Positions 42,874 through 58,715 of a stretch of 64,000 nt of DNA are shown here, piece after piece (positions within the stretch are counted from its first letter, which is position 1; every line of letters begins with the position of its first letter). Source of the stretch: Thermoprotei archaeon. Lineage in GTDB: Archaea; Thermoproteota; Thermoprotei; Thermoproteales; B15-G16. The DNA lies in NCBI GenBank assembly GCA_003649205.1, contig QMRC01000007.1, positions 1 through 64,000 of the forward strand. Direction: 5' to 3'. The translations under genes were made by a program, and so were the position numbers. The notes beneath the pieces were generated by a model. That model saw only the letters and a program-made list of their open reading frames with translations. It had not been told where the DNA came from and made no database searches.

Positions 42874-42892
42874 AATTAGACACCCCCTAATC

Positions 42893-42914
42893 ATTCTGTG
42901 CAATGTCACGGAAT
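42893..42914. promoter_or_regulatory. Imperfect palindrome next to TATA box of gene 41056-42873
   Basis: ATTCTGTG-caatgt-CACGGAAT (7 of 8 match) adjacent to TTTATA on the minus strand. Confidence 0.45.
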
Positions 42915-42983: not shown

Positions 42984-44249
42984 TCAACCTATTCCCGTAT
43001 CTAATTCCTGAAGCTTAGCCCTTACCTGTCGTATAACCTCCTCATAAACGTCCTTTATCGCTAATCCAGTTTCCTCGGCAATCCTTCTCAAGTCCTCGTA
43101 CTCTGGCTTAGCTCTAAGTAATTGGCCTGATGGGGCTCTCGATATCTTAACTGTTACAGTGAATTTTCTTCCTTTAATAACAACATCAATAGGGACCTTA
43201 ACTCTAGACGCAACAACTCTCGACAATTCACTAACGCGAACACCTAACGTACCTACCTCCCTCATCAGTAACTCAACTAAATCCCTGTAGTTACCTACAT
43301 CAGCAAGAACCTTAATCACGTGTACTGGTCTATTCTTCTTACCTAAGCCAGGTAGCACAACGACGTCAATAGCACCTTGAGACAGCAACTTATTGACAAG
43401 GTACCCAATGAATTCACCGGGTACATCATCTACATTCGTCTCCAGAACAACCACCCTATCTTCACAGATATCGGCAATTGAGCCTTCAACCACTCTAAGT
43501 ACATTTGGTCTACCTTCAACATCTCTTGCACCAGCTCCATAACCAACTCTCTCAACTCTCATACCTGGGTAGAAATCAACAATGTGCTTTGTCAAGTGTA
43601 CTAATAGAGCTGCACCGGTAGGTGTAGTTAATTCATACGGTACATCCGCCATTGAGTACCTGTAGTTATGCCTTCTCAAGATCTCAAGAGTGGCGGGTGC
43701 TGGTACAGGTAGGAGACCATGTTCGCACTTCACGAAACCACTACCAAGCGCAGGTGGTGTAGTGTAGACTCTATATCCCTCGCAAAATACACCCATCTCA
43801 TCGAGTAGCTTAGCACTACAAACAATATCGAACACCGTATCTAGCGATGCTAGTTCATGTAGGTGAACTTCATCAACACTAATCCCATGTACCATAGCTT
43901 CAGCTTCAACGAGCTCCTTCACAACAGCAATAGCGTATTCCCTAGCTCTCGTGGATAGGTTAGTGGCACTACAGCACTTATTAACTAACTCAATAACCTC
44001 CCTACCACTCCTCTCCTCTTCACTACTGGGACATAGAACCTCAACTCTCTTTGCTCTTAACCCAGACTTACGAACATCATATATCTTAACGCCAAAATCA
44101 CTACATCCAGAAACATCTCTAACGGCATCTACCACGAGATTAACAATATCTGTAAGCCCCGTGAGATCAAGTAGTGCACCAACAAGCATATCACCTGAAA
44201 CACCTGCAACACGAGGATCAAGCAACAATACCTTAACCACATCATGCAC
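42984..44249 (-). CDS. larC: Nickel pincer cofactor biosynthesis protein LarC
   Basis: AGVSGDM, VHLHE, HGLLPVPAPAT, ELTTPTGAA, ETNVDD, KKNRP, KPEYED. Confidence 0.95.
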   Translation of the reverse strand: MHDVVKVLLLDPRVAGVSGDMLVGALLDLTGLTDIVNLVVDAVRDVSGCSDFGVKIYDVRKSGLRAKRVEVLCPSSEEERSGREVIELVNKCCSATNLSTRAREYAIAVVKELVEAEAMVHGISVDEVHLHELASLDTVFDIVCSAKLLDEMGVFCEGYRVYTTPPALGSGFVKCEHGLLPVPAPATLEILRRHNYRYSMADVPYELTTPTGAALLVHLTKHIVDFYPGMRVERVGYGAGARDVEGRPNVLRVVEGSIADICEDRVVVLETNVDDVPGEFIGYLVNKLLSQGAIDVVVLPGLGKKNRPVHVIKVLADVGNYRDLVELLMREVGTLGVRVSELSRVVASRVKVPIDVVIKGRKFTVTVKISRAPSGQLLRAKPEYEDLRRIAEETGLAIKDVYEEVIRQVRAKLQELDTGIG

Positions 44250-44433: not shown

Positions 44434-45873
44434 GTGATTTCAGACTTTAATCCAATGAACTTGGTAAGAAGCTTAGGGTATGTAATGAGCACTGACCTCT
44501 TCTTCGATCTCTTCGTCAAGGAGGTTGAGGAGAAGCTCACTAATGGGAATTCAGGTACTGAATTCACTATGAAGCCGAAGATACCTACCATTCTCTTCAA
44601 CGAGATCAAGAAGCTATGGGTAAGCGAACTCCCCAAGAGAACAACTAACTGCTCCATAGTAGCTGTTGATGGTGGTATAAGGTCACTAGGTCTAGAAGGT
44701 GGTAGAGAGGTAGTTATAACGAGGGCTATAGCAGTAACTAGTTCAGGTGCTAGAGCAAGACAATTAAGAGTTGAGTTAAGTAAGCTACAGGGTTTTGCTC
44801 TAAAGCTCTCACTACTTACGCAGGTAGAGTGCTCTGTTGCTCTTGAAGCTCTAGAGAAGGTACCTAATGTGGATTACTTACTTCTCGATGGTTCACTATA
44901 CTATAGAGTAGTCCATGCACTTCACAGAATTCTTAGACCTAGGGAGATAGCAGATACTTACTACCTACCTGAGCTAATCATGACCGTGACCTACGTAGCT
45001 ACCTTACTCAAGCGATGTCGCGAGCTCAACGTAGTGCCGCTATTCATAACGAAGGACTCATCATCACGAATGTTGAAGGACTACGTAATCAGCAACATAA
45101 TCTACGAGCAGCTGTACGAGAACAAGCTCCTTACAGACCTAGAGGACATCACCACGGAACTACTTTTAAAAGCACGAAACCTGTACTCAGTTACCTGGGT
45201 AAAACACTACAGAGCAAATCTCGAAAAACTTCAACAACACCTAAGAGCGGCACCTACGAATGTAGCGGAAGAACTTATACACTGTATTGAGCTATGGCTT
45301 CAACCGCACATCACAGACGTAGACTTAATTCGCTCAACAGTAACCACTATAGGTTTCTCAAGACCGCTCAACATAGGTCTCATAGATATCCACTTAGATA
45401 ACTTACTACAGGTACTTGAGAGGAGTAAGAAGAGAGTACTTGACAGGATCAGTGATGCACTCAAGATGAGAATCAATGAGGTACTAGGTAATGAGAGTTA
45501 CTGGTACACCCTACTGATGAATGCTCTCAAGACAATACCAACTCTCTACATGACGTACATACGTGTGACACCAGACGATACACCACTAGCAATTGAGATA
45601 CCTAACTTCAGATCCAGTATGGGATTCGTAGAGTTCCGAAGTAGGAGATTAAGTAGTGAACTCGAGATACTAGATCCACTTAGTATAGTTGTCAGTGGTT
45701 ACAGGAATTCAACAGTCTACAATGTATGGCTCTACTTAGCACATCAGTACGCAACCTTCAGATCAACTCAGTTCAGAAGCTACGTAAAGTACCTCGAAGC
45801 ACATCTCTCAAAGTATGGTCTTATCCTTCGAAAGAAGAGAAGAGAGAAGATGGTGGTGGCTCCTCTTGAGTGA
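44434..45873 (+). CDS. nurA: DNA double-strand break repair nuclease NurA
   Basis: VAVDGG, LLLDGSL, ITKDSSS, LYLAH; directly upstream of herA-mre11-rad50; start uncertain. Confidence 0.85.
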   Translation: MISDFNPMNLVRSLGYVMSTDLFFDLFVKEVEEKLTNGNSGTEFTMKPKIPTILFNEIKKLWVSELPKRTTNCSIVAVDGGIRSLGLEGGREVVITRAIAVTSSGARARQLRVELSKLQGFALKLSLLTQVECSVALEALEKVPNVDYLLLDGSLYYRVVHALHRILRPREIADTYYLPELIMTVTYVATLLKRCRELNVVPLFITKDSSSRMLKDYVISNIIYEQLYENKLLTDLEDITTELLLKARNLYSVTWVKHYRANLEKLQQHLRAAPTNVAEELIHCIELWLQPHITDVDLIRSTVTTIGFSRPLNIGLIDIHLDNLLQVLERSKKRVLDRISDALKMRINEVLGNESYWYTLLMNALKTIPTLYMTYIRVTPDDTPLAIEIPNFRSSMGFVEFRSRRLSSELEILDPLSIVVSGYRNSTVYNVWLYLAHQYATFRSTQFRSYVKYLEAHLSKYGLILRKKRREKMVVAPLE

Positions 45874-47899
45874 GGAGGTTGGTTATGTAGTTGGTGAGGT
45901 CACTCCCCTAGAATTTACCTTCGCTGTAAACCCCAAGACACCAGTACCTCTCTACGAGTATGTGTACTGTGAGCTAGAGGATGTACCACCTGGTGAGACC
46001 AAGCTCCATAGAGTAAAGGTCATAGCACAGGTACATGAGGTGTATCGTGTTGGTGTTGGTCTTGGCAAGAATGTACCCTATGATGTGGCTAAGAACTTAG
46101 CAGCTAGCGGTGTTGAGGTTGAGGAGATTCACCTAGCTAAGGCTAGGGTACTTGGGTATGTGTGGAGAGGTAGATTGGTAACTCCGAGGAGACCACCGAG
46201 AGCGAATACTAAGGTCTTTAGAGCACCAACTGAGCTAGTTAAGGAGCTTTACAGCGTTCCAGAGGATAGAGCACTTCACATAGGGTACCTTGTTGCTAGA
46301 CCTGAAGTACCTGTCTACCTAGATGTTGAGGGCTTGAAGAGGCACTTAGCGATAATAGCAGCTACAGGTAGTGGGAAGACTTGGTGCGCAGTGTTATTGA
46401 TTGAAGAGCTGTTGAAGAAGGGTGCCACGATAGTTGTCATAGATCCTCATGGTGAGTACGTTAAGTTGAAGGAGAAGGTTCACGTCCTAGATCCCAGACT
46501 TAGGGATAGAGTTCTTGTACTTAAAGCTTCACGAACGCAGGAAGGTGATAAGCTCTATAGAATAAAGCTCCTTCAACTAGATTCAGAAACTCTCTCAAGT
46601 ATAGCGGGTATACCACAGAATGCTCACAAGATAAGACACTGTGTGAGAGCAGCATTCAACATAGTTAAGGCAATTGCTAAGTACGTGAATAGGCCTGAGC
46701 TAGTTAACATAGGTAACTTGTTGAAGGTGCTTAGTTTCTGGAGGAGAGAACGAAATGTATCAAAGTCGAGGAAGTCAGGTAACCTATCTCCTGAACCTAT
46801 AGTTAGGAAGATGCTTCAGGAATTATTTAATCTAGGTAATTCAGATAGTGAGTTAGTTAGGAAGCTCAGTAAGTACATTGAGGATCTGTACGCAGCAACG
46901 TACCGTGATGTATCACCTTGTCTTGATGCTATCAGGTACCTAAGGTCACTTAAGAGGTATGGGGTCTACACCTCAACAACTACACCACTACACGAAATTC
47001 TTCAACCAGCTCACGTAACGATACTGAACCTCAGTGGTGTTAAGGAGGAAATACAGGACCACATCGTCTACAATGTCCTAACCAGGATATTCAATGCTAG
47101 AGTCAGGTACGTCAGAGACCTACCTGGTGAAAGGTATGAGTACCCTGTTGTCGTCTTCATTGAGGAAGCACATAGATTCGCACCACCTAAACACCGTAGT
47201 AGAAGAACTTGGAGTCAAGAGATAATCACGAGGATTGCTTCTGAAGGTAGGAAGTTCGGTGTCTACTTAGTGGTCATAACTCAGAGACCATCGAAGATAG
47301 ACTCAGATGTGCTGTCTCAATGTCAGAATCAGATCGTCCTCAAGATAGTTAATCCGAAAGATCAAGAAGCTATTAAGGATGCTAGTGAAGTGCTCTCACA
47401 GGACTTACTCATGAACTTACCTAGCCTCAACACCGGTGAAGCTATTGTTGTTGGTCCATTAACTAAAGCACCCGTAATAGTCAGGTTGAGGGATCGTATA
47501 TTACCCTACGGTGGTTCAGATATCGTGGTTAGTGAGGTATGGAGTAGAGCATTGACCTCAGTACTTCCAGATACCTCAAGTGAAGTACATGTACTTAGGA
47601 AGCTAGGTATCAACGTTGATCAAGGTACATTGAGGAAGGTAATGCCCTACCTACCGTATGTCACGTACGAGATTGATCCACTAACATTGACTATCCTCGG
47701 TAAGGTAAGTCTTGGACGTGAAGCGTATGTCGAGTATAGACTCGGTGAAGGTACATGGTACTGTTCAGCATGTAGACATAGCATTCAACCATGTGTACAC
47801 GTACTAGCACTCCTGCTAAAAGTTATAGCTTCTAAGGATATAAAATTACTTGAGAGAGAAGTGGTGCAGAACAATGGTAACGATAGCACACCTAGCTGA
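45866..47899 (+). CDS. herA: HerA helicase/translocase with C-terminal SWIM-like zinc finger
   Basis: HAS barrel VGYVVGE, RHLAIIAATGSGKT, IDPHGEY, FIEEAH, EGRKFG, TQRP; tail WYCSAC-x6-CVH. Confidence 0.93.
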   Translation: MSEEVGYVVGEVTPLEFTFAVNPKTPVPLYEYVYCELEDVPPGETKLHRVKVIAQVHEVYRVGVGLGKNVPYDVAKNLAASGVEVEEIHLAKARVLGYVWRGRLVTPRRPPRANTKVFRAPTELVKELYSVPEDRALHIGYLVARPEVPVYLDVEGLKRHLAIIAATGSGKTWCAVLLIEELLKKGATIVVIDPHGEYVKLKEKVHVLDPRLRDRVLVLKASRTQEGDKLYRIKLLQLDSETLSSIAGIPQNAHKIRHCVRAAFNIVKAIAKYVNRPELVNIGNLLKVLSFWRRERNVSKSRKSGNLSPEPIVRKMLQELFNLGNSDSELVRKLSKYIEDLYAATYRDVSPCLDAIRYLRSLKRYGVYTSTTTPLHEILQPAHVTILNLSGVKEEIQDHIVYNVLTRIFNARVRYVRDLPGERYEYPVVVFIEEAHRFAPPKHRSRRTWSQEIITRIASEGRKFGVYLVVITQRPSKIDSDVLSQCQNQIVLKIVNPKDQEAIKDASEVLSQDLLMNLPSLNTGEAIVVGPLTKAPVIVRLRDRILPYGGSDIVVSEVWSRALTSVLPDTSSEVHVLRKLGINVDQGTLRKVMPYLPYVTYEIDPLTLTILGKVSLGREAYVEYRLGEGTWYCSACRHSIQPCVHVLALLLKVIASKDIKLLEREVVQNNGNDSTPS

Positions 47900-49202
47900 T
47901 GCGCATCTAGGCTTTAGACAGTATGGGCTACCTGAAAGAGCTAGTGACTTCGCTAAATCATTCCACAGGGCAGTCGATGAGATAGTGGAGAGGAGAGCTG
48001 ACATAGACCTAGTACTGATAGTTGGTGATCTATTCCACAGCAAGAGACCTAGTCCAGAGACAATTCGTGAAGCTGTTATTGGTCTTAAGAAGCTCAGAGA
48101 AGCGAATATACCGGTCATAGTGACAAGAGGCAATCACGACGCGCCATACTCGCAAGGCAGCAACAATGTGTTGACTCTCCTCTCTGAGCTAGGTTTAGTC
48201 AAGTACATAGATTATGGAAGAGTAGAGATTAGTGGGATCGAAATCATAGCATGTGGTTGTACACCAACAGCGTATACAAGAGCACTAGAGAACTACTTGA
48301 GACAAGTAGTTAGCTTAGAGAAGGGACAACGTATCCTCCTACTTCACCAGGTTATTGAGGGTATAGAGCAAAATTACCCAAATGACCCGTATGTAGTACC
48401 ATTAGATGTAGTTAAGGAATTTGCTACGAAATTCAACTACATAGCTCTAGGTCATGTACATACCTTCGCACTGAAGCACCCTCAATTACCTGCATACTAC
48501 TCCGGATCACTAGATATCTGGGATATCTCTGAATTCGAGACATACATCATGAAGTCTAGCAAGACCTTAGTTAAGGAACGTGACATGAGTGAGAAGGGTT
48601 TCCTCATAGTTCATGTAGATGGTGGAATTGAGGTAGAGAGAGTAAGACTTAGACCTAGTAGGAGGATGATTAGAGCAGTTCTCGCTTACAGTAATGAGGT
48701 GAAGCCTAGTGAAGTAATGAGGGATCTTATATCGGTAGCTCACGAGCTAGATAGGGAAGATGCTGTTGTTGTGATCGAGTTGCTAGGTAATCTAGTACCT
48801 GGTTCGAGTAGGCATGAGCTAAATTTGAAGGAGGTGAGGAAGTACTTTAGAAGAGTTCTCAAACTCGATATCAGGAATAGGCTGGGTGTAGTTACGTCGA
48901 CTACAGATGGTAAAGTAGTAGACATATCGTCACTGAGTTTAGAGTCGCTTCTCAGGAGTTCATTCCTGAAATACTTCAGCAACGTAGCTAAGTCAATTGC
49001 TCTAGATCCTCAGTTCCTAAGTGAGTTAGCTATGAAATTGCTCGATCTCCTAGCTCAAGGTAAGACTAGAGAAGCCCTCTACGTATTGTATAGAGAGTTG
49101 GGTGTTGATACAGGTACTGTATCGATTCCGAGTATCAGTACCTCTACTTCAGCTCCCTCTAGAAGGGGTAGGGAATCCACGATATTAGATTGGTTGAGGT
49201 GA
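47874..49202 (+). CDS. mre11: Mre11 nuclease
   Basis: ADAHLG, GDLFH, GNHD, LLHQ, LGHVH, YSGS. Confidence 0.95.
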   Translation: MVTIAHLADAHLGFRQYGLPERASDFAKSFHRAVDEIVERRADIDLVLIVGDLFHSKRPSPETIREAVIGLKKLREANIPVIVTRGNHDAPYSQGSNNVLTLLSELGLVKYIDYGRVEISGIEIIACGCTPTAYTRALENYLRQVVSLEKGQRILLLHQVIEGIEQNYPNDPYVVPLDVVKEFATKFNYIALGHVHTFALKHPQLPAYYSGSLDIWDISEFETYIMKSSKTLVKERDMSEKGFLIVHVDGGIEVERVRLRPSRRMIRAVLAYSNEVKPSEVMRDLISVAHELDREDAVVVIELLGNLVPGSSRHELNLKEVRKYFRRVLKLDIRNRLGVVTSTTDGKVVDISSLSLESLLRSSFLKYFSNVAKSIALDPQFLSELAMKLLDLLAQGKTREALYVLYRELGVDTGTVSIPSISTSTSAPSRRGRESTILDWLR

Positions 49203-49212
49203 GGGACTTACC

Positions 49213-51633
49213 TTGATCATTAGGTTAGAGGTAGAGAACTGGAGGTCCTACATAAGGGCCAGTGCTACGTTTACTGAAGGAATAACGTTTGTACATGGTG
49301 TTAATGGTGCTGGTAAGACATCTCTCCTAGAAGCTATAGCATATGCTCTCTACGGTTCTAGGTGGTTAAGGTTAGCGAGGAGGGAAGGTGAGGAGAGGTT
49401 AAGTGATCTCCAGAGGAGGGGTTCCAGTATTACTAAGGTTAGGTTGTGGTTTAGAGCACCTAGTGGTGAGGTGTATGTTGTTCAGAGGTGTATCGTGGGT
49501 GGTAGATCTCAACGAGATAGTACGTACCTAATGGATTCTAGAGGTAGGAGATTAGCTATTGGTGATGAGGAGGTTACTGAAGCTATTGAGAGGATAACTG
49601 GTATATCCTGTAGGGCGTTTAGGGAACTCCTCTACGTTAGGCAGGGTGAGCTGAAGGATATTCTAAAGGAGAGACGGAGAGAGAAGCTGGATGAGCTACT
49701 TAGGATCAAGGATCTGGAGAAGGCTAAGGACTCTATGAGGGATGTTATCTCGAAGCTAGATACAGCACTTAGGTTAACGATCCAGGAACTAAGTCAGGTA
49801 GAGCACCTCATTCGTGAGTACGAGAATAGGGTTCTAGATATCTCTAAGAAGATGGATGGGTTAGTTAAGTTGATTGAGGAGTATAGGACTAGAGTTAGTT
49901 CCATTGAGAGTAGACTTGAGGAGATGAAGAAACGTGAGGAGGAGTTGAGGAGTTATCGTGAGAGGATTCAGAATCTAAGACTCGAGGTAGCTAACTTAAG
50001 GACTGTTAGGGAGAGGTACATTTCTGAGATAAGGGTTCTAGAGGGTGAGCTTCAACGGGTTAAGGAGTTAAGGGATGAAGTTGAGAGGTTAGCTCGAGAA
50101 TTGCAGAGAGCATCTGAACTTGAGCAGAGATTACGTAGCTTGAGAGAACAGGAGAAGCAATTGCTCAATCTCCTCGGTGAGTACACGTACCTACTCAACC
50201 AAGTTAAGGAGTATGAAAAGCTGCTTAGTGAGGTCAATAGGCTTAGAGATGAGTATGAGAAGTGCAGTCAGGAGCTTAGATTGCTAGAGAGTGAGAGGAG
50301 TAAGCTACTTCAACAACTCTCATTAATTAGGAAGTTTGAGGAGGAGTATAGTGAACTACTTAAGCGTAGAGCTCAGCTAGAGCAGGAACTGAGTATTCTA
50401 CGTAATTTTGTAGATAATTTGGAGGGATCTAGGGTAGCTACGTGCCCTCTCTGTGAAAGAGAGATTAGTAGTGAGTACAGGGAATTGATTCTAAAGAGAA
50501 AGAGGAAGAGAATTGAGGAGTTGAAGAATACTCTAACTGACTTATCTAAGCGTATTCAGGAGATTGAGCAGTCACTTAAGCAACGAGATGAGCTTCTCTC
50601 TAGACTACTGAATGTCGAGCAGTGTATAGCTAGTGCTCGATCTAGGTTGCAGGAACTGGAGAGTAAGCTACGTGAGCTAAGTGATCTACAGAAGCAGGTA
50701 CAGAGTATGTATGAGAAGATTAAGACTCTTGAGGGTAAGTTAAGTGAGTTAGAGAGAATTCGAGATGACATAACTCAGCTAGAGCGTGAAGCTGGTAGAG
50801 TACAGGAACTGAGAGAGAGATTGAGTTCTTTAATGCAGGAGCTATCTAGGGAGCGTGTACTCGAGCAGAAAATAGCGGAGCTAAGGGAGAGGGTAAGTGA
50901 GGTTACGGAACTAATTGAGTGTAAAGAACGTGAGGTTAAGTCTCTACTCACTAAATTCAATGAGGAGGAGTACACTAACTTACAGAGTAGTATTCAGCAT
51001 CTTGAGGAGGAGCTTGTGAGGTCTAAATCAGAGCTAAGTAGGCTAGAGGGTGAACTAAAGTCCTACCATGAACAACTATCCGAAGCCAAGAGGAAGTTAA
51101 GTGAACTCGAGAAGAGACGAGAAGAGTTAATCAGGAAGAGGCAGAACCTCGAGCGGGTACTCGCAGTAGCCTCTCTGATAAGGAGGTCGTACGACGAGAT
51201 CAAGCCAATGCTTAGGTCATTGGTCATCGAAGCAATAAACATGGAAGCAGAGAACCTGTTCAATCAACTTAAACACAAGAAAAACTATGAGAGTATCGAG
51301 ATATCACCTGATTACGAGGTGTATATACGTGATAGATCAGGTGCTAAGTACCTTATCGACTACTGTTCTGAAGGTGAGAAGACACTCATAGCACTGGTCC
51401 TCAGATATGCACTAGCAAAGGTACTCATAGGTGAAACACCCATATTAATTCTTGACGAACCAACAGAACACCTAGATAGAGAGCATAGAGCAAGACTCAT
51501 CAGGTGGTTAAGCACCTGTGAGTGGGCTAGACAACTAATAGTGACATCTCACATAGATGAGTTCAGTCAAGTAGCAAACAACGTAGTGGAGGTAAGAGTA
51601 AGAGAAGACGGCGTATCAGAGGTAATTCAGTGA
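49213..51633 (+). CDS. rad50: Rad50 ATPase
   Basis: GVNGAGKT, Q-loop YVRQ, zinc hook CPLC, CSEGE, ILDEPT, VTSH. Confidence 0.95.
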   Translation: MIIRLEVENWRSYIRASATFTEGITFVHGVNGAGKTSLLEAIAYALYGSRWLRLARREGEERLSDLQRRGSSITKVRLWFRAPSGEVYVVQRCIVGGRSQRDSTYLMDSRGRRLAIGDEEVTEAIERITGISCRAFRELLYVRQGELKDILKERRREKLDELLRIKDLEKAKDSMRDVISKLDTALRLTIQELSQVEHLIREYENRVLDISKKMDGLVKLIEEYRTRVSSIESRLEEMKKREEELRSYRERIQNLRLEVANLRTVRERYISEIRVLEGELQRVKELRDEVERLARELQRASELEQRLRSLREQEKQLLNLLGEYTYLLNQVKEYEKLLSEVNRLRDEYEKCSQELRLLESERSKLLQQLSLIRKFEEEYSELLKRRAQLEQELSILRNFVDNLEGSRVATCPLCEREISSEYRELILKRKRKRIEELKNTLTDLSKRIQEIEQSLKQRDELLSRLLNVEQCIASARSRLQELESKLRELSDLQKQVQSMYEKIKTLEGKLSELERIRDDITQLEREAGRVQELRERLSSLMQELSRERVLEQKIAELRERVSEVTELIECKEREVKSLLTKFNEEEYTNLQSSIQHLEEELVRSKSELSRLEGELKSYHEQLSEAKRKLSELEKRREELIRKRQNLERVLAVASLIRRSYDEIKPMLRSLVIEAINMEAENLFNQLKHKKNYESIEISPDYEVYIRDRSGAKYLIDYCSEGEKTLIALVLRYALAKVLIGETPILILDEPTEHLDREHRARLIRWLSTCEWARQLIVTSHIDEFSQVANNVVEVRVREDGVSEVIQ

Positions 51634-51735
51634 TACGTGCAATAACAATACAATAAAGTGCAATTCTGCACATTGAAAGAGCAACAACTCAACAGGTTAA
51701 GTACCTCTACTCCAACTCCTTCTCCGGGAACACTC

Positions 51736-52455
51736 ATGGGTAAGGTAGTGGTTATTAAGGAGAAGAGCGAGAGCATACCATCGATATTCTTGAAGTCAGT
51801 AGTGGGTGTAGTCTGCTTCGTACTATTACTCACGATATCACCAGTGCTAGCAATGCTATCTCTCGGCTCAGCCGCTACCTTCATAGCTTTGAAAAAGATA
51901 GTAGGTAGAAAGAGGAAAAGAGAAGATACAGTACCTGAAGACGAAGATACAGAAGCGCTGAAACTCAACACAAAGAGGAGTAGGGCATTTCACTCAGTAA
52001 TCAGGCTGAAGCCAGTGAACTTAAGTAAGCTACATAGACTAGACATGAAGGTGACACTCCTCGTACTTGATCCCAAAGCAAACTACATACTGGTACCTAG
52101 AGGACTAGAGTTAACCTGTATAGCACTCATGAAAGTACAGACACAGCAACCGCTTGACAGGGATACTATAGCGAAGATCTGCCTCAGTACAGATTGTGAA
52201 GTCGAGCCCTCCGAAGTAGTAACACTAGATCACGTAGGTAATAGCAAGATACCGCTCACACACTACGTACTGGTAGTTAGGTCTAGGAAGGTAACACCAG
52301 TAGTGACATCAAACACCGTAGCTGAGTTAATTAGCAGAGTTAGTCTCGCAATCTCAACACTAACCTCAACAATCATGAGTAGAGACCCCCAAGCAGTGAT
52401 CGAAGTTCTACCAGCTAGTAGAGTTATTGAGGAACAGCTACTGATGAGGTGGTGA
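51736..52455 (+). CDS. Membrane-anchored hypothetical protein
   Basis: N-terminal hydrophobic hairpin (VVGVVCFVLLLTISPVLAMLSLGSAATFIAL), then KKIVGRKRKR and a soluble alpha/beta domain; stop 1 nt before the next ATG. Confidence 0.75.
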   Translation: MGKVVVIKEKSESIPSIFLKSVVGVVCFVLLLTISPVLAMLSLGSAATFIALKKIVGRKRKREDTVPEDEDTEALKLNTKRSRAFHSVIRLKPVNLSKLHRLDMKVTLLVLDPKANYILVPRGLELTCIALMKVQTQQPLDRDTIAKICLSTDCEVEPSEVVTLDHVGNSKIPLTHYVLVVRSRKVTPVVTSNTVAELISRVSLAISTLTSTIMSRDPQAVIEVLPASRVIEEQLLMRW

Positions 52456-52456
52456 C

Positions 52457-53785
52457 ATGAGGATCACCATAGGTTACGAAATTCAGGGTAACGTAGCAGT
52501 ACGTGAAGCAATGCTAGATCTTAGAGGTGGAGACGTAATCGGTATCTTCGGTAAGTGTGGTAGTACTACAGTCAAGCAGTTAATCACATCACTTAGTGAT
52601 CTGTCAGAGGAAATAACCTCCACAGTGATTCTAGATAGTGAAGGTACTCTCCGAAACCTCAAAGCACTAAACGAGTACAGGTACACAGTTCTTGGATGGA
52701 ATGCATCACTACCTCTAATAGAAGTAATTCCCCCAGGAAAAGACCTCTCATCTAGACTCCTCATGGTAACTGACATCATTGCAGCAGCACTGAATCTCAG
52801 CGATATCGAGGCACACATACTTCACAACGCACTCATGAAGTACCTAACAAGCAGTAGTCACGAGCTAGATAACCTAATGAAAGCTCTCTCGGAAGAGTAC
52901 ATGAAGTTAAGTCCTGTAGAGAGAACGAGAGCATACAACATACTCTCACTAATGAGGGACCTAAAGTACGGTAGACTAGGAGCTACTTTCTCTGAACTAC
53001 ACCACACAGTAAATTTAGAAGAGAGTATGCTCTACGTAGATACAGCACTAATACCTCCAAGCTACAGACCTCTCATACTATCACTCCTGATGTACTACCT
53101 GTATAGTAGAGGTGCTAGGGGTAAGATCATAGTGATACTGAACTTCGGCACTTACCTAAGTGATGTATCGATGAGATCAAAGAGCTTCAGTACCCTACTC
53201 ACTACGTTACTGATAAACAACGTGACGGTAATACATTCAAACTCAATACTAGAGCTCCCTACGTACTTAAGAGAATACATCACATACATAATCCAGCACA
53301 GGGTAAACACAAGTACTGAAGCAAGAGCTCTAGCAGATTTCTACAAGCTACCTGAAGAAACATTAACGAAGTTGAGAGATCACGAAGCATACCTAGTCGG
53401 TAGAGGTCTATGCCTCAAGATTGCGCTATGGCATGACATAGTTGAGGAGTTACCTACCTCTAGGTTACCCAGAGAATTACTTACACCCCGTGAACCAGCA
53501 GCCCAACCACTGATAAGGGAGGTATTCGGTGATAGAGCAGAGCTAGTGTACGAGGTACTGAACTACCTAAGGAGAGGTGCAGTTACTAGAGATGAGCTAC
53601 TCTCCTTCCTAACTGAAGGTATGGGTCTCGATACCACATCAGCGGCCAAGCTAATCAATGAGCTATGTGTTCACGGTCTTGTAGAGGACTTCATTGCGAG
53701 AGATGGTAGGTACTGGATTAGGCTCTCCATTAGGGGTCTTGTCTCTGTTGATGAGTATGAGGAGTGGAGAGCAAGAGAGACGTAG
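52457..53785 (+). CDS. Degenerate HerA/VirB4/FtsK-like P-loop protein with C-terminal winged helix
   Basis: IGIFGKCGSTT (broken Walker A), VILDSEG, LTKLRDHEAYL; C-terminal VTRDELL...AAKLINELCVHGLV wHTH. Confidence 0.65.
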   Translation: MRITIGYEIQGNVAVREAMLDLRGGDVIGIFGKCGSTTVKQLITSLSDLSEEITSTVILDSEGTLRNLKALNEYRYTVLGWNASLPLIEVIPPGKDLSSRLLMVTDIIAAALNLSDIEAHILHNALMKYLTSSSHELDNLMKALSEEYMKLSPVERTRAYNILSLMRDLKYGRLGATFSELHHTVNLEESMLYVDTALIPPSYRPLILSLLMYYLYSRGARGKIIVILNFGTYLSDVSMRSKSFSTLLTTLLINNVTVIHSNSILELPTYLREYITYIIQHRVNTSTEARALADFYKLPEETLTKLRDHEAYLVGRGLCLKIALWHDIVEELPTSRLPRELLTPREPAAQPLIREVFGDRAELVYEVLNYLRRGAVTRDELLSFLTEGMGLDTTSAAKLINELCVHGLVEDFIARDGRYWIRLSIRGLVSVDEYEEWRARET

Positions 53786-53799
53786 TGGAGGTGATTTTG

Positions 53800-54219
53800 A
53801 TGAATATTAGATGGGACTCTAGTGGACTAGGATTTACATGGACTATAGGTATTGTAGGTACAGGTATCCTACGTGGTAGGGTAAGGAGGGTCAGTACTAG
53901 GAATGGCGTACGAATAGTGCGGTCAGTGTACCTTGTACCAAAGAGGTCGTTAAGAGATGATGCTGGTGAGGAATTACTTACAGAGTGGTATGAACCGCAG
54001 GAATTCAGTAAGCTAGTCGACGCAGAACTCAAGTTGCTCTCCATAGTGCTTGAAGAAAGAAGTAGATCAGGCGACCCTGTTCAGGAGATTAAGCTCGCAC
54101 TTGCTGACTTGGAGAAGCTCCTCAATCAAGTTGCCCTCCTTAAAGCTAGATTGGAGAAGTTATTGGAGGTGGTGAGTTATGGGAGGAAGGAGGAGAACTC
54201 AAACCACAACTCAAACTAG
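53800..54219 (+). CDS. Hypothetical protein, beta-rich basic N-domain plus C-terminal leucine zipper
   Basis: GGAGGTGA site before ATG 53800; overlaps the radA start. Confidence 0.7.
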   Translation: MNIRWDSSGLGFTWTIGIVGTGILRGRVRRVSTRNGVRIVRSVYLVPKRSLRDDAGEELLTEWYEPQEFSKLVDAELKLLSIVLEERSRSGDPVQEIKLALADLEKLLNQVALLKARLEKLLEVVSYGRKEENSNHNSN

Positions 54220-55222
54220 CTCACAGGTTCAGCAGGTAAGTGAACAGAGATCTGGAGTACAGGAGCTTAAGGTAGTCAGGATACCAATCGAGGAGTTACC
54301 TAACACGACGAGAGCTACCATAGAGAAGTTGAAGAGTGCAGGTATCTACAGCGTTCAGCATCTCTCAATGTTTACGGTAGATGAGCTAGTTATGTACGAT
54401 GTGACGCCGGAGACAGCAGCTAGGTTACTGAGAAAAGCAAGAGCACTACTCAAGAGTGAACCACGAGTATTCTCACTCAAGGAGTTCTCAAACTACAAGA
54501 GTTCACTACCTAGAGTGAGGATTCACGTAAATGCTATAGACAACATGTTGGGAGGAGGTCTAGAACCTAGAGCTATCTACGAATTTGCTGGTGAATTCGG
54601 TGCTGGCAAGACACAGCTTTGTCATCAACTAGCTGTCACAGTTCAACTAAGCTACGATAGAGGTGGCGTAGCAGGAGCGGCGCTGTACATAGATACTGAA
54701 GGTACCTTTACACCCTCTAGAATAAAGTCAATAGCAGAGAGATTTGGGCTAGATCTCGACTACGTATTCTCAAACATCTACGTAACACAACCGAAGACTG
54801 TTGACGATTTACTTGAGTGTATTAGGACAGATGTCGTTAGGTACGTAGAGGACCACAACGTCAAGCTAATAATAGTTGACTCATTAATAGGTCTCTTCAG
54901 AGCTGAGTACCCTGGAAGGGAGAATCTAGCTCTAAGACAGCAGAGACTGAACTACGCTCTAGACTGGCTCTCGAGAGTAGCCAAGACCTACAACATCTTC
55001 GTAGTGATCACGAATCAGGTAATGGATGTACCAATGGGATTTGGTTCACAGAAACCAGCTGGTGGAAACATCATGGCACATGGTGCAACACATAGATTCC
55101 TACTATACAAAGTCGGTAGGGAATCAGGTCTAAGAGCAATGGAAGTGCTTGACTCACCAGCACTACCTGAGGGACTTACTGTCAAGTTCAGAATAACTGA
55201 AAGAGGGTTAGAGGATGTCTAG
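54179..55222 (+). CDS. radA: RadA/Rad51-family recombinase (divergent full-length form)
   Basis: N-terminal HhH domain, GEFGAGKTQ, YIDTEGTF, IIVDS, FRAEYPGRENLALRQQ, TNQV, GGNIMAH. Confidence 0.9.
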   Translation: MGGRRRTQTTTQTSSQVQQVSEQRSGVQELKVVRIPIEELPNTTRATIEKLKSAGIYSVQHLSMFTVDELVMYDVTPETAARLLRKARALLKSEPRVFSLKEFSNYKSSLPRVRIHVNAIDNMLGGGLEPRAIYEFAGEFGAGKTQLCHQLAVTVQLSYDRGGVAGAALYIDTEGTFTPSRIKSIAERFGLDLDYVFSNIYVTQPKTVDDLLECIRTDVVRYVEDHNVKLIIVDSLIGLFRAEYPGRENLALRQQRLNYALDWLSRVAKTYNIFVVITNQVMDVPMGFGSQKPAGGNIMAHGATHRFLLYKVGRESGLRAMEVLDSPALPEGLTVKFRITERGLEDV

Positions 55223-55556
55223 AGTAGACATACCACCAAAGATACTGCAGAAGTTCAGAGAGATGTTTCCGAATAAGAGTACATCGTGGATAAGGAGGTG
55301 CATAGCGAGATTACCAGATGTCGTTGAGGGTAAGGTAAGAGGTGTCTGGTTTGTTCGTGGTAATGCTAAGCTTGGTGATGCGTATTCACAGTACATAGTG
55401 AAGTACATTGCTGGTAAGTACATGTGTAGCTGTATGGAGAGAGAAAGACCGTACCACAGTAGGAGAAGAAAGGAGCTGTGCACACATGTTGGTGCGGTAA
55501 TCCTGTATAGGTTACTGAAGGGTGAGACTATATGCGAGACAGAGGTCTCATCCTGA
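55215..55556 (+). CDS. SWIM zinc-finger protein
   Basis: YMCSC-x15-CTH followed by VGAVIL helix. Confidence 0.85.
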   Translation: MSRVDIPPKILQKFREMFPNKSTSWIRRCIARLPDVVEGKVRGVWFVRGNAKLGDAYSQYIVKYIAGKYMCSCMERERPYHSRRRKELCTHVGAVILYRLLKGETICETEVSS

Positions 55557-56023
55557 TCTACGGTAATCCAAAGAGGATACTGAAGAAGCTAGTAACAGCA
55601 CTACAGAGAGAATCTGCACTACTGTTAACCGATAGCGAGAACTATGCAGCAGTACCATATGAGGAAAGCGATCTCAAGATAGCTATTGTCGATGTATTAG
55701 AGCATGTACCTGAGGTACTGAGTAAGGAAGCTAGAAAGGTAAACGTAGTGTGCACACCATCAATACTCAGCAAGGTTGTTAGAGAGTTCTACAGCTACGT
55801 AAGGAGTTCACCTAGTGGAAGTTACCTAGGAATATACTACGTCAAGCTACTTAGAGAGGTTCTCGAAAGAATTCGAGCAATAACGTACTCGAGAAGGTTA
55901 CTCACAATTGTCGTAGCACCTTCACGAATAAATCCAGTAACAGGTCAGGAGTACCCTGTACTACATTGGTTAGTTCAGAGGTACTTCGATGAGGTACTTC
56001 ATGAACAACACGTGATGGTGTGA
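55532..56023 (+). CDS. Truncated, inactive RecA-fold (RadB-like) protein
   Basis: GLILIYG without the GKT loop, LLLTDSE, VCTPSI at the Walker B position, IRAITYSRRLLTIVV, YPVLHWLVQRYFDEVL. Confidence 0.6.
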   Translation: MRDRGLILIYGNPKRILKKLVTALQRESALLLTDSENYAAVPYEESDLKIAIVDVLEHVPEVLSKEARKVNVVCTPSILSKVVREFYSYVRSSPSGSYLGIYYVKLLREVLERIRAITYSRRLLTIVVAPSRINPVTGQEYPVLHWLVQRYFDEVLHEQHVMV

Positions 56024-56024
56024 G

Positions 56025-56522
56025 GTGATTGATCTGTCTAAGGCGGGGAAGAACAACACAGTCGACATATACATATGTCCAATATGTGGTAAGACTTTCA
56101 GCAAGGAAAGCAGTTTAGCGCATCACATAACTAGAGCACATGGAACATACAAGCTAATTGTTGATGCAGGTAAATTCATCACTAGATTAGAGAAGGTTGA
56201 GAGAACACTCGCTAGAGTAGAGAGAGCAGTATCTCAACTACTTGAGCAAATTAAAACCCTAAATGGTAAGCTTGAGGAAGTCTCAACATCGATATCCGAG
56301 CTACAGAAGCAATTACAGGAGGTACCTCAGATAACGGTCATGGCTCCTAAAGTAACACTTGTAACTCAAGAAGCTAAGGCACTGAAGACCGAATTAGCTA
56401 CATCAATCAAGAGACTTGACCTACATAGCGCAGACACCATAGAGATACCAGACTACATCCTGGACAATCCATGGTTAAAAGTTCTCCAGCAAAAACCAAG
56501 AGAAGGCAACTTAAATTCCTAA
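56025..56522 (+). CDS. C2H2 zinc finger plus coiled coil plus arcadin-2-like C-terminal peptide
   Basis: YICPICGKTF-x5-LAHHITRAH, heptads, C-terminal DYILDNPWLKVLQQK. Confidence 0.85.
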   Translation: MIDLSKAGKNNTVDIYICPICGKTFSKESSLAHHITRAHGTYKLIVDAGKFITRLEKVERTLARVERAVSQLLEQIKTLNGKLEEVSTSISELQKQLQEVPQITVMAPKVTLVTQEAKALKTELATSIKRLDLHSADTIEIPDYILDNPWLKVLQQKPREGNLNS

Positions 56523-56540: not shown

Positions 56541-58715
56541 TTACGAGTATAGAAACGTAAGTGATGCCAGCACTAGATATACGAGCTGTGAAGCTACTAG
56601 TCCAATACCAATCATGTAAAGGATCACTGACAATGTCAACCTTACACTACGTGACTCCTGATATATCACAGCTATTGTTGGTAGACAAGGTACGTAAAGC
56701 GTGAAGAAAACCAGAAACGCCATCAAGCTAGGTAGAGTGAAGCCAAGTGCTCTCAATGCTTCATCAATACTCACTCCACCATATAGTAATGACGTAGCCT
56801 CCAAGAAGGCCTCCTTCGCTATAAATCCATGAAGTAGTGCAAAACCTACCTTCCACGCTTTTTCAGCGTCAAGACCATACAGCACAGAAATTACTGGAGC
56901 TAGTAGCTTCCCAAGTAATGCACCATAGGTCTTCTCAATACCTACACCATACCCCTCTGGACCATAGCTCAGCAACATCCACGTGACGATACTCAAGCCA
57001 ACTATTATGATACCTGCCTTCCTTAGGAAGTGCTTACTGTAATCCCAAGTCAACCACCACAGTACCTTACCTGAAGGTCTGTGAATTGGAGGTAGCTCAA
57101 TAACCAGTTCCGGTGGCTCCTTCCTACGGTACACGACTCTCCTAGTGAGAATTGATGTGAGGAGTGCTACAAGGAAGGATATGGCGTAGAGCGATAGAAG
57201 TGCAAGTGCTTGCCCTAGTGGGTTCTTAATGTATGTAGTGACAAATGCTAAGATAACAACTAACCTTGCTTGACAAGGAATGAATGGTACAGAAACTATC
57301 AATTGCCTCCTCTCCTCTTCCTCAAGTGCTGTCCTAGATGCCAGTACAGCAGGTAGGTTACATCCGAGACCTATCATGAATGGGTAAATAGCTCTACCAC
57401 TTAACCCAAATCTACTGAAGAAGTTGTGGAATGAGATAGCGAAGCGTGGTGCTAATCCACTATCCTCTAGCGTAGCTATGAGTAGAGAGATCAACATTAT
57501 CAGTGGCAGGAATGAGAGAATAGCACCAACACCTGGAATAACACCATCAACTATTAACGACGTCACTTGTGGTCCAAGACACGTCTTGAGAAGTGGTTCA
57601 AGAAGTGTACTTAGGTACGTAAATCCTAGACCAAGCAATCCCGATATGCTGTACTCCTCAATTAACTCAGCTAATTCACTAAACCCTAAGTAGCTAAGAA
57701 GTACATTGAATGGAAATCCCGTATTCACAGCAAATATCAGAGAGAACAGTATGAGAAGGGATATGAAACTGACTACAGGACCCATCAGTGGGTGCTGAAT
57801 TAACCTATCGAGAAGCGCAGTAGCTAACTCAGTTAGGCTAAGTTCCTCGTACCTACGTGCTTTCTTCTCAACACGAACAACGACATCGCCTAGGAGAGAG
57901 TCTATGAACTTGAATCTCTGAGCTACAAATAACTCCATTAACTCTCTACCATAGGTTCTAGCTAATGACTCGCGAATCCTCCTAACTCCATGAACTACCT
58001 CATCTTCACCAAGTAACTCAAGCTCCTTCTCCAGCTCTGGATCACCTTCGAGAAGTCTAATAGCCAACCACCTAAGAGGGTACTTCCTGGAGAGAGCTGA
58101 CTTAGACAGTACCCTCTCCACATCGGATATAGTAGACTCAAGAAAAGACCCATAGTTAACCCTAATAGGCTCTCTCCTACACCTCCTACCCTCGGCAACA
58201 TCAATTATCGCATCGAGTAATTCTCTCAAGCCATATCCCTTAATAGCGGATACAGGAACTACAGGAACAGAGAGCTTACTTTCAAGTCTATCTACGTGGA
58301 TGTGAATGCCTAAACTATGTGTGAGGTCTGATTTCGTCAACGCAATGACGACTTTAGGCGTTAACTCAAGTACCTGAATAGCTAGGTACATTGTCCTCTC
58401 TACAGCTGTTGAATCAACGAGCACCAAAACGAGATCAGGTTTCTCCTCCACGATGTACTTCCTAGCAATAACCTCTTCAGTGGTGGAAGCTGATAAACCG
58501 TAGATACCGGGTAGATCAACAAATCGAATAATCTTGCCCTTATATTCACGAACTCCCTCCTTTCTCTCAACGGTTGTTCCAGGCCAATTAGCTACATGAG
58601 ATATCTCACCAGTGAGTACGTTAAATAGCGTTGACTTACCAACATTTGGCTGCCCAATAACGCCAACAACTATCTCACGTTCTCTTCCACTGTTCTTACC
58701 CGTGGTAACCACCAT
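56541..58715 (-). CDS. feoB: Ferrous iron transporter FeoB
   Basis: GQPNVGKS, NWPGTTVE, DLPG, LEDSG, PFIPC, FFTLYVPC; ATG 58715 preferred. Confidence 0.96.
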   Translation of the reverse strand: MVVTTGKNSGREREIVVGVIGQPNVGKSTLFNVLTGEISHVANWPGTTVERKEGVREYKGKIIRFVDLPGIYGLSASTTEEVIARKYIVEEKPDLVLVLVDSTAVERTMYLAIQVLELTPKVVIALTKSDLTHSLGIHIHVDRLESKLSVPVVPVSAIKGYGLRELLDAIIDVAEGRRCRREPIRVNYGSFLESTISDVERVLSKSALSRKYPLRWLAIRLLEGDPELEKELELLGEDEVVHGVRRIRESLARTYGRELMELFVAQRFKFIDSLLGDVVVRVEKKARRYEELSLTELATALLDRLIQHPLMGPVVSFISLLILFSLIFAVNTGFPFNVLLSYLGFSELAELIEEYSISGLLGLGFTYLSTLLEPLLKTCLGPQVTSLIVDGVIPGVGAILSFLPLIMLISLLIATLEDSGLAPRFAISFHNFFSRFGLSGRAIYPFMIGLGCNLPAVLASRTALEEEERRQLIVSVPFIPCQARLVVILAFVTTYIKNPLGQALALLSLYAISFLVALLTSILTRRVVYRRKEPPELVIELPPIHRPSGKVLWWLTWDYSKHFLRKAGIIIVGLSIVTWMLLSYGPEGYGVGIEKTYGALLGKLLAPVISVLYGLDAEKAWKVGFALLHGFIAKEAFLEATSLLYGGVSIDEALRALGFTLPSLMAFLVFFTLYVPCLPTIAVIYQESRSVRLTLSVILYMIGIGLVASQLVYLVLASLTFLYS

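Follow-up and report, generated by a model that had tools for sequence, protein, structure and literature searches.

The stretch of DNA analyzed here, 64,000 nucleotides (nt) long and called the window below, is contig C7 sequence from the 2.07-Mb assembly of a Thermoprotei archaeon (G000; 31 contigs, 93.8% complete). Between positions 44434 and 56522 it carries eleven tightly packed open reading frames (ORFs), all on the plus strand and numbered g01 to g11, which make up two units. Unit 1 (g01 to g04, 44434-51633) contains nurA, herA, mre11, and rad50. Unit 2 (g05 to g11, 51658-56522) encodes, in this order, a membrane-anchored protein, a predicted HerA-fold protein that lacks the Walker A motif, a small beta-rich and coiled-coil protein, a RadA paralog (RadA2), a SWIM-type zinc-finger protein, a small protein with a predicted RecA fold, and a C2H2 zinc-finger protein that ends in a crenactin-type helix. 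From the comparisons described below, unit 2 reads as a module that is conserved on its own in the phylum Thermoproteota and is independent of rad50 elsewhere; the best reading of the arrangement in the window is that the module became joined to the resection operon in one lineage.

With starts taken from the longest ORFs, the spacings from g01 to g11 are -59, -50, +10, +24, +1, -22, -41, -8, -25, and +1 nt. The spacer between rad50 and g05 (51634-51735) measures 24 nt if g05 starts at the GTG at 51658 and 102 nt if it starts at the ATG at 51736. Read directly, this spacer contains no run of five or more T residues and has an AATAAA-like stretch near 51652. Because unit 2 begins 24 to 102 bp after rad50 without an oligo-T run, transcription of the resection operon probably continues into it in this genus. 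In a second assembly from the same genus (G001), the eleven genes follow one another as in the window, spread over two contigs whose overlap falls within g05; there, the rad50-g05 junction lies inside a single contig, so that the junction is seen in an independent assembly. The initial annotation of this DNA, which had described eleven same-strand ORFs that mostly overlap or nearly abut, a nurA-herA-mre11-rad50 operon, and a 102-bp gap after rad50, was correct in these respects, the gap having that length with the ATG start.

Unit 2 recurs without rad50 across the phylum

A search with g08 across the class matched 119 of 120 genomes at two levels of identity, 50 to 57% and 41 to 48%, the lower of which includes the second RadA of the same genome, encoded on contig C2 and 44% identical to g08. 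The neighborhoods of the high-identity matches were then searched by tblastn at 16 loci. The order g06-g07-g08-g09 was found in G092, the order g06-g07-g08-g09-(gap)-g11 in G090 and G089, and the order g08-g09-g11 in G080 and G079, where jackhmmer added shorter homologs of g06 and g07. In G095, G086, and G087, g09 lies beside g08, the form of the module being rearranged in the last two, and four genomes from family f15 have, next to g08, a stretch of 20 residues that matches the tail of g11. Overall, jackhmmer grouped 7 further g06, 5 g07, 7 g09, and 7 g11 sequences with the genes of the window, and none with g05 or g10.

The module extends to other classes, from which seven loci show the C terminus of g06 (where in range), g07, RadA2, the SWIM gene, and then a gene of 141 to 212 amino acids (aa). 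A hidden Markov model (HMM) of six g07 members picks out, at each of the 13 module loci, the gene immediately before RadA2 (E 4e-51 to 3e-6). Among 401 sampled genomes of the phylum, the g09 profile matches 72; a RadA gene stands beside the SWIM match in 8 of the 26 loci returned, and the SWIM gene adjoins RadA2 in 8 of 16 RadA2 loci. Sequence identifies g06, g07, g08, g09, and g11 as families that recur together in one order; g05 belongs with them on the evidence of its position and architecture, and g10 on that of its position alone. The initial annotation had allowed that the seven downstream genes might prove scattered in relatives; this is not the case, the module core being found in conserved order at 13 loci from 9 families.

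The link to the resection operon has a far narrower distribution. No nurA, mre11, or rad50 gene is present in 12 module loci fetched with flanks of 8 to 10 kb, the single match to unit 1 being a 42-residue match to the HerA P-loop in L057. In the other direction, 15 rad50 loci from the order's other two families contain none of g05, g06, g07, g09, and g10 by tblastn; the other matches there are a coiled-coil stretch of g11 that falls within the rad50 of L029 (E 0.002) and, upstream of herA in L030, a weak match of RecA type to g08 (E 8e-5). A phmmer comparison of g05 to g11 with the ORFs that lie up to about 9 kb past rad50, made at 14 of these loci (L020 was excluded as incomplete), gave nothing better than E 0.01; in five scanned loci, the genes after rad50 are of CoA-ligase type, ThiD/ThiN, pyruvate-oxidoreductase (POR)-like, ribosomal S10, SurE, and eRF1-like. 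A single-sequence search detected g06 in 2 of 62 genomes of the order, and a locus search with g06 alone matched only the metagenome-assembled genome of the same genus. The module is linked to the resection operon only in this genus, in both of its genomes.

These distributions bear on the proposal of the initial annotation that the eleven genes form a dedicated, anchored supercluster. The part of that proposal that stands is that the seven downstream genes are a nonrandom set, given that they recur in order elsewhere; the part that does not stand is that the eleven genes are one conserved unit. We consider it unlikely that all eleven encode one dedicated, spatially anchored, and co-evolved machine that leads from resection to strand exchange. 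Such a machine would be in keeping with the packing of eleven genes on one strand, the absence of an oligo-T run after rad50, the preservation of the junction in both genomes of the genus, the sensible order of resection followed by RadA loading, and the CxxC..CxHxxA finger of the HerA of the genus, but rad50 and the module are linked in none of the 15 rad50 loci and none of the 12 module loci elsewhere. Moreover, six module loci from several families have a different fixed chromosomal neighbor instead, a divergently transcribed gene whose product ends in the conserved motif ...FFPHxHxTxGFFIAK and which, at a guess, encodes a NOP2/RsmB-like methyltransferase.

On its other side, the module is followed in five loci (L047:3711-4190, L052, L050, L045, and L055) by a gene for an ArsR-type helix-turn-helix (HTH) protein (HTH_5, E 1.9e-12) with C-terminal transmembrane segments. 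This gene is absent after the module of the window, where FeoB is encoded instead.

Unit 1 and further copies of its genes

The four genes of unit 1 are adjacent and codirectional, and each passes the Pfam cut-offs for its operon domain. The product of g01 (44434-45873) is a 479-aa NurA nuclease (Pfam NurA, 38.8 to 39.3 bits; cut-off, 21) that is 27 to 30% identical to the NurA encoded upstream of herA in relatives. The 694-aa HerA helicase encoded by g02 (45815-47899) matches DUF87 (126.7 bits; cut-off, 23.2), HAS-barrel, and HerA_C, is 40 to 45% identical to the operon HerA of 13 relatives, and carries a C-terminal zinc-finger extension of the type CxxC..CxHxxA (window 47700-47899), which reads CSAC..CVHVLA. 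By eye, CxxC..CxH is present at the HerA C terminus in 11 of 12 relatives, and 4 of those 11 have the strict CxHxxA ending. The Mre11 nuclease encoded by g03 (47850-49202; 450 aa; Metallophos, 49.9 bits, cut-off 21.5; Mre11_Pyroc, 143.3 bits) is the sole Mre11 of the genome, and 56 of 62 genomes of the order have an ortholog. The last gene, g04 (49213-51633), encodes an 806-aa Rad50 ATPase with a CPLC hook (SMC_N, 76.1 bits, cut-off 40; Rad50 PRK03918, 250.4 bits), for which the Rad50 hook model scores 22.6, just below its cut-off of 24.3; the only other Rad50-like gene of the genome is that of arcadin-4 (3867-6374, minus strand).

Although the top NCBIfam names for g01 to g04 are NurA, HerA, Mre11, and Rad50, the equivalog cut-offs are not reached by NurA_Sulf (21.1 against 400), helicase_HerA (250.1 against 970), HerA_Thermprot (207 against 800), Mre11_Pyroc (143.3 against 600), or Rad50 PRK03918 (250.4 against 700), and the four proteins score as divergent members of their families. 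Synteny with relatives is the basis on which the four genes are taken as orthologs of the usual operon. In the same 15 rad50 loci, the neighboring genes match g01 to g04 with gene order preserved and at 27 to 45% identity; mre11 and rad50 stay together throughout, and herA and nurA lie within the fetched stretch in 12 and 7 of the 15 loci, respectively. The nurA-herA-mre11-rad50 operon was reportedly first described for thermophilic archaea. Unit 1 resembles this end-resection operon in having the same four domains, in the order seen in the 7 relatives' loci where all four genes were found, and differs from it in scoring far under the equivalog cut-offs, in the C-terminal zinc finger of its HerA, and in the seven genes that follow it in this genus.

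Second copies of the housekeeping genes, for which the initial annotation had suggested looking, do exist: the genome encodes the canonical RadA on C2 and further NurA-domain and HerA-like proteins, whereas mre11 is single. The best-scoring of the further HerA-like genes lies on C1 among purine-synthesis genes. The Pfam NurA model matches three places in the genome, g01 and two on C2. One stretch of C2 (186435-188733) carries a second pair of a HerA-like and a NurA-domain gene, and another (C2:64399-65214) carries a lone NurA-domain gene that scores 61.4 bits with Pfam NurA, compared with 38.8 to 39.3 bits for g01.

RadA2 is accompanied by a SWIM protein and a small predicted RecA-fold protein

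The descriptions that the initial annotation had given of the seven genes of unit 2, namely a membrane-anchored protein, an inactive HerA/VirB4-like protein, a beta/zipper protein, a divergent RadA, a SWIM protein, an inactive RecA-fold protein, and a C2H2 protein with an arcadin-2-like tail, are all borne out by the results in this and the following two sections. The divergent RadA, RadA2, is the 347-aa product of g08 (54179-55222), a full-length RadA paralog that scores 299.1 bits with PRK04301 (cut-off, 259) and 277.7 with TIGR02236, below the cut-off of 361.15. Its N-terminal helix-hairpin-helix (HhH) domain is present (HHH_5 match), and its Walker A motif reads GEFGAGKT, the motif being found in all 49 aligned RadA-type rows. 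FxxA is the self-polymerization motif of RadA/Rad51, located between the N-terminal domain and the core. Its Phe and Ala occur in 21 of 22 canonical rows, and the Phe occurs in none of the 25 RadA2 rows, g08 reading RVFSLK at this place. The g08 product shares 50 to 57% identity with the paralog clade of other families and 44% with the canonical RadA on C2, which scores 324.6 bits with Pfam Rad51, compared with 220.3 for g08. In a midpoint-rooted tree of 47 sequences, obtained by a quick search after removal of two very long rows, the canonical rows, 22 with the C2 copy included, form a clade (Shimodaira-Hasegawa-like approximate likelihood ratio test [SH-aLRT] support, 100; branch, 1.49), and g08 falls among the other 25 with an end branch of 1.36. 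The RadA2 clade is old and roughly follows the families. RadA2 thus reads as a paralog separate from canonical RadA, with an intact ATPase motif and without FxxA.

The gene that follows RadA2, g09 (55215-55556), encodes a 113-aa SWIM-type zinc-finger protein with the motif CxC..CxHxxA, with C71, C73, C89, H91, and A94 unchanged in all 9 family members. PMC6316741 gives CxC..Xn..CxHxxA as the extended signature of the Shu2/SWS1 family. An AlphaFold2 (AF2) model of g09 has a predicted local distance difference test (pLDDT) value of 87.1. When this model was compared with 48,161 solved chains by an exhaustive aligner, ZSWIM8 ranked first (Z 5.7; root mean square deviation, 3.7; 90 residues), the next row had Z 3.7, and Shu2 (6dex_B) ranked fourth (Z 3.3), which amounts to modest support because a Z value below 8 can reflect a common arrangement.

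Relatives of g09 are not confined to the module. The g09 profile matched 266 proteins at E <=0.001 among 1.84 billion representatives; of 10 long matches that were scanned, 6 are XPD/DinG-type helicases (Helicase_C_2) with an N-terminal g09-like domain and 2 more are DEAD/ResIII fragments. The six helicases are P0085, P0087, P0090, P0093, P0117, and P0146, several of them with inteins.

The third member of this group, g10 (55532-56023; 163 aa), has LILIYGNPKRILKK at the Walker A position and is predicted to be a small RecA-fold protein without a P-loop (Atlas model; predicted template modeling [pTM] score, 0.77). The neighbors of its Atlas model are RecA_N, Rad51, and RadB clusters at template modeling (TM) scores of 0.68 to 0.78, both sides of the comparison being predicted models, and in place of Walker A it reads YGNPKRILKK. 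A word-based search of 5.8 billion proteins, which returned 2 proteins, found the G001 ortholog as the only one. In 10 other loci, a gene of 141 to 212 aa occupies the position of g10 after the SWIM gene; g10 and the genes at its position elsewhere gave hhalign probabilities of at most 2.4% and a best phmmer E value of 0.0013 (in a set of 11).

Archaeal RadA paralogs such as RadB, aRadC/RadC, and the Sulfolobus Rad55-like proteins are thought to mediate RadA function. RadA2 and, by prediction, g10 share the RecA fold with them, g10 resembling the short, core-only type. RadA2 differs from them in keeping the N-terminal HhH domain and full length, in lacking FxxA, and in having fixed partners.

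A putative scaffold and membrane anchor

The three genes upstream of RadA2 encode the candidates for a scaffold and an anchor. The product of g05 (51658-52455; 265 aa, or 239 aa from the ATG at 51736) has a 35-residue hydrophobic segment at residues 39 to 73, followed by the basic stretch KKIVGRKRKR, and has no match in Pfam or NCBIfam. In six other module loci, the gene upstream of g06 encodes a protein of the same architecture; the profile similarity between g05 and this upstream family is suggestive (hhalign probability, 22%; E 9e-4).

The next gene, g06 (52457-53785), encodes a 442-aa protein for which the Atlas model (pTM, 0.73) predicts a HerA/FtsK fold without Walker A and with a C-terminal winged-helix-like domain. 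All 10 structural neighbor clusters of this model are DUF87/HerA, with TM scores by query of 0.62 to 0.75 between predicted models. There is no match in Pfam, DUF87 included, and a PDB sequence and profile search with the g06 family returned nothing relevant; the only library match is a weak one to the CedD DNA-translocating ATPase (E 0.005). GK[ST] is absent from all 8 family members that cover the N-terminal region (of 10 aligned), and the winged-helix-like C terminus is common to all 10. An AF2 model built from a three-sequence alignment was poor (pLDDT, 56.6), being confident only at residues 353 to 441, and was not used for the fold search. Word-based protein searches returned close relatives only, three proteins each for g06 and g11.

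Between g06 and RadA2 lies g07 (53764-54219), which encodes a small protein of 151 aa without a library match; by alignment only, it has a beta-rich N-terminal part and C-terminal helices, consistent with a beta-rich and coiled-coil protein.

The adjacency of a membrane protein and a HerA-fold protein raises the question of DNA import, and the initial annotation had named DNA exchange among the possible functions. The Ced/Ted DNA-import systems comprise a HerA/VirB4-like ATPase and membrane proteins. The succession of the membrane-anchored g05 and the HerA/VirB4-fold g06, with its weak CedD match, recalls CedA/CedB, and unit 2 might accordingly be read as a membrane-anchored acceptor that passes imported DNA to a dedicated RadA for integration. 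We regard this as very unlikely. The module contains no gene for a pilin-like or a polytopic, CedA-like channel protein, g05 having a single hydrophobic segment, and, unlike the Ced/Ted ATPases, every g06 member that covers the region lacks Walker A, so that g06 cannot drive translocation.

A crenactin-type tail in g11

The last gene of the module, g11 (56025-56522), encodes a 165-aa protein with a C2H2 zinc finger (zf-C2H2, PF00096, 28.6 bits; cut-off, 25.2), a coiled coil, and a C-terminal helix of crenactin-binding type. The tail (residues 140 to 159; 56442-56501) resembles that of arcadin-2: in a BLASTP comparison of the last 20 residues with the tail of the arcadin-2-like protein of the window, 8 of 20 are identical and 17 of 20 similar (E 6e-5). 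Residues P142, N148, P149, W150, and V153 do not vary among the 9 members of the g11 family. The CPICGK..H...H finger is present in 6 of the 9, and three f15 members have a winged-helix-like N terminus instead.

The crenactin locus lies in the same window on the minus strand (3867-8655) and consists of the genes for arcadin-4 (3867-6374; Rkd4, 459.6 bits), an arcadin-2-like protein (6561-7340), and crenactin (7357-8655; NF053560, 655.9 bits, cut-off 630). The arcadin-2 model, Rkd2, scores weakly on the arcadin-2-like gene (42.2, against a cut-off of 290) and does not match g11 at E <=0.01; a PDB sequence search with arcadin-2 found nothing relevant. A gene for the sliding clamp PCNA (8707-9594, minus strand) directly adjoins crenactin.

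Izore et al. 2016 (PMC5173319) report that arcadin-2 binds a hydrophobic groove of crenactin at 31 nM through its last 17 residues, among them a key Trp, and that these residues depolymerize the filaments. A complex predicted for crenactin and residues 120 to 165 of g11 has an interaction score (ipSAE) of 0.89, the best of three controls reaching 0.00, but this docking counts as a likeness only, because a like complex has been solved (5LY3) and the model may remember it. The mark set for ipSAE is reached by 58 of 80 solved complexes and by 2 of 110 mismatched pairs. Independent runs agree in at least 80% of contacts, the pLDDT of the partner is at least 59, and the interface is formed by g11 residues 140 to 159 with W150 at its center. 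By alignment and by prediction, g11 is a protein with an arcadin-2-type, crenactin-binding-like tail, and the membrane anchor and crenactin-type tail on which the initial annotation had laid weight are real features of the module. With arcadin-2, g11 shares the C-terminal helix with the key Trp that is predicted to dock in the groove of the actin fold; it differs in being unmatched by Rkd2, in having a C2H2 finger in place of the N-terminal domain, and in its location within a recombination module, at a distance of 48 kb from the crenactin locus.

The distribution of the tail follows that of crenactin. In the set of 401 sampled genomes, the g11 profile matches 112, mainly through coiled-coil-plus-tail proteins that include the arcadin-2 beside crenactin, and a crenactin-like gene (E <=1e-30) is present in 138. 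Crenactin is found in 111 of the 112 genomes with a tail match, the exception being G124, which is 85% complete; this overlap is no statistical test, because the genomes are kin. In four crenactin-negative genomes that have the module (G299, G225, G264, and G414), no g11 follows the position of g10 within a 1.5-kb flank. Outside the class, crenactin-like genes with an adjacent coiled-coil-plus-tail gene occur in families f21, f25, f28, f30, f34, f41, f44, and f56.

Five proteins of the genome end in ..(F/Y/W)(L/I/V)xDNPW(L/V/I/T)x(V/I)L..: arcadin-2, g11, and those encoded at C16:35216-35656 (minus strand), C12:17617-18318 (plus strand), and C8:37662-38288 (minus strand). A scan for the tail motif returned 5 of 7575 frames, one of them probably spurious, and the C8 protein was identified by a profile search. 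The C16 protein matches RHH_1 (E 3.6e-9), and the C12 protein matches HTH_23/sigma-70 r4 (E 1.4e-9).

Two functions of the tail can be weighed here. One is that g11 by itself, produced along with the repair proteins, acts as a checkpoint in the manner of SulA and FtsZ in bacteria, its helix capping crenactin monomers, dismantling filaments, and pausing growth or division during repair. The predicted position of the g11 tail, on the crenactin surface that corresponds to the arcadin-2 site, would suit this function, but four of the five tail proteins (all except arcadin-2), or their relatives, have N termini of DNA-binding type (C2H2, HTH_23/sigma-70 r4, RHH_1, or, in f15, winged-helix-like), which is the layout of a ParR-like adaptor, and a checkpoint role for g11 seems improbable to us. 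The other function is that of an adaptor: with its putative DNA-binding N terminus and C-terminal helix of actin-binding type, g11 shares with the ParR/ParM system the layout of DNA-binding domain, coiled coil, and tail that is seen in ParR.

The surroundings of the module and contig C16

The genes that flank the eleven-gene stretch both lie on the opposite strand and are unrelated to it, encoding a Ni-insertion protein (42984-44249) and FeoB (56541-58787). Further upstream, a 617-aa ORF (41056-42909, minus strand) has no Pfam match.

Contig C16 of the same assembly, a probable mobile element, carries several genes of the same kinds as unit 2. It is 36,109 bp long with a guanine-plus-cytosine (GC) content of 39.9%, compared with about 43 to 44% for the window, and it encodes two HerA/VirB4/TraG-like ATPases, a RadA-like protein (7827-8990), a g09 paralog (9755-10213, minus strand; E 1.7e-9), a ParA-like protein (29301-30041), and the ribbon-helix-helix (RHH)-coiled-coil-tail protein mentioned above. 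Most of its other ORFs have no Pfam match, and its ends show no terminal overlap.

This contig, together with the multi-copy and partly broken SWIM-family genes of several genomes, invites the explanation that the module is a domesticated recombination or partition cassette of plasmids or integrated elements, in which a RadA-like recombinase, a SWIM partner, HerA/VirB4-like proteins, and a ParR-like adaptor riding on the crenactin of the host would serve to replicate, integrate, or segregate the element. Several observations speak against this. GC content shows no step across 44434-56522 and that of the module equals that of its surroundings, no tRNA gene is present between 38 and 64 kb of the window, and a repeat search around the module returned only short imperfect repeats and no flanking repeat. 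The chromosomal neighbor shared by six loci of several families and the age of the RadA2 clade, which follows the families approximately, argue the same way, as does the RadA-like copy on C16, which is far more divergent (end branch, 8.24). Viral contigs scanned with g08 and the RadA-like protein of C16 gave no match, each scan using a single protein and reaching close relatives only. A cassette origin of the module is, in our judgment, quite unlikely.

DISCUSSION

We propose that unit 2, read as an ancient module of the phylum, encodes a recombination mediator of the Rad51-paralog/Shu type that is tethered to the membrane and to the cytoskeleton and that was joined to the resection operon in one lineage, a proposal to which we give an even chance. 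In outline, unit 1 is the ordinary nurA-herA-mre11-rad50 operon, whose products resect DNA ends. RadA2, g09, and g10 would assemble on the resected 3' tails and help the canonical RadA encoded on C2 to form or keep its filament; RadA2 itself, with its ATPase motifs intact and without the FxxA "ball" used for polymerization, would be nonpolymerizing. The dead HerA-fold protein g06 with its winged-helix end, the coiled-coil protein g07, and the membrane-anchored g05 may provide a scaffold and an anchor at the membrane. Lineages with crenactin would add g11, whose C2H2 finger could bind DNA or protein and whose C-terminal helix could bind the crenactin groove, so as to tie the complex, or the DNA held by it, to the actin-like cytoskeleton. 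In this genus, the module would be cotranscribed with the resection operon.

A close parallel is the eukaryotic Shu complex (Shu2/SWS1 with Csm2-Psy3-Shu1 or SWSAP1), which the module resembles in that a small SWIM gene with CxC..CxHxxA lies beside genes for RecA-fold paralogs, one of them without the ATPase loop. The archaeal module differs in adding to this a full-length, ATPase-competent RadA2, the dead HerA-fold and membrane proteins, and an adaptor to the cytoskeleton; the tie between its SWIM protein and RadA2 is seen at the level of gene adjacency. A bolder version of the proposal holds that the SWIM protein, the P-loop-less RecA-fold protein, and a nonpolymerizing RadA2 make up an archaeal forerunner of the eukaryotic Shu/Rad51-paralog mediator, built on a dead HerA-type ring and a membrane anchor, that in lineages with crenactin a ParR-like adaptor couples it, or broken DNA bound by it, to actin-like filaments such that recombination intermediates are positioned or moved, and that in this genus a single transcription unit covers the path from end processing to presynapsis. 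We consider this version doubtful.

Several points weigh against the mediator proposal, besides the modest structural match of g09 and the possible model memory behind the docking of g11. Homology between g09 and Shu2/SWS1 at the sequence level is not shown by Pfam or by PDB profile searches: the Pfam SWIM model (PF04434) matches 3 of the 9 g09 family members, with a best E value of 0.12, and not g09 itself; a profile search of PDB chains with the g09 family found no SWIM protein, and a Foldseek search of the PDB with the g09 model returned nothing at E <=0.001. SWIM genes of the g09 family are moreover multi-copy, with 6 in G043, 4 in G036, 4 in G039, and 10 in G115, several of these with stops, pointing to a gene family that is repeated or mobile. 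A mobile origin or use of the module fits both these multi-copy genes and the RadA-like/SWIM pair on C16. The multi-copy genes often lie within ORFs of 190 to 270 aa, with no RadA within 1.5 kb.

The folds of g06 and g10 rest on Atlas predicted models, and for g10 the feature score of 0.89 lies under the bar of 0.9, which makes that fold a lead only; outside the genus, no sequence relative of g10 or g05 reaches significance. In family f2, the RadA2 ortholog occurs by itself: an HMM search of 10 loci, including one with 9-kb flanks, detected no partner from the module. The partners are therefore not obligatory. Finally, since extra NurA-domain and HerA-like genes exist in the genome, the "housekeeping" status of unit 1 depends on its synteny and on mre11 and rad50 being single.

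In line with the remark in the initial annotation that this was not a system it recognized, no description of the module was found in the literature searched: none of the papers there connects crenactin, or the tails of arcadins, to RadA paralogs, and none sets out a RadA-SWIM module in archaea. The parts are of known kinds; what seems new is the module as such, how widely it is spread, and the adaptor that would join it to the cytoskeleton. In the literature consulted, Rad51 paralogs and the SWIM-containing Shu complex are treated as eukaryotic, and PMC5727457 describes Shu2 orthologs as conserved "from archaea to humans"; the work on Shu2 orthologs cited there may already mention archaeal SWIM proteins.

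In eukaryotes, the Rad51 paralogs and the Shu complex are central regulators of recombination. A conserved archaeal module that pairs RadA paralogs with a SWIM protein of the same extended signature would give the Shu machinery a prokaryotic counterpart that can be tested, and protocols already available for RadA and crenactin would allow each part of the module to be expressed and assayed. The module would sit in the archaeal lineages nearest to the actin-bearing ancestors of eukaryotes. The putative tail of g11 and its relatives would also widen the set of crenactin partners beyond arcadin-2 to a family of proteins with a DNA-binding domain, a coiled coil, and a tail, represented in this genome by four proteins in addition to arcadin-2, and this family points to DNA-linked functions for the archaeal actin crenactin.

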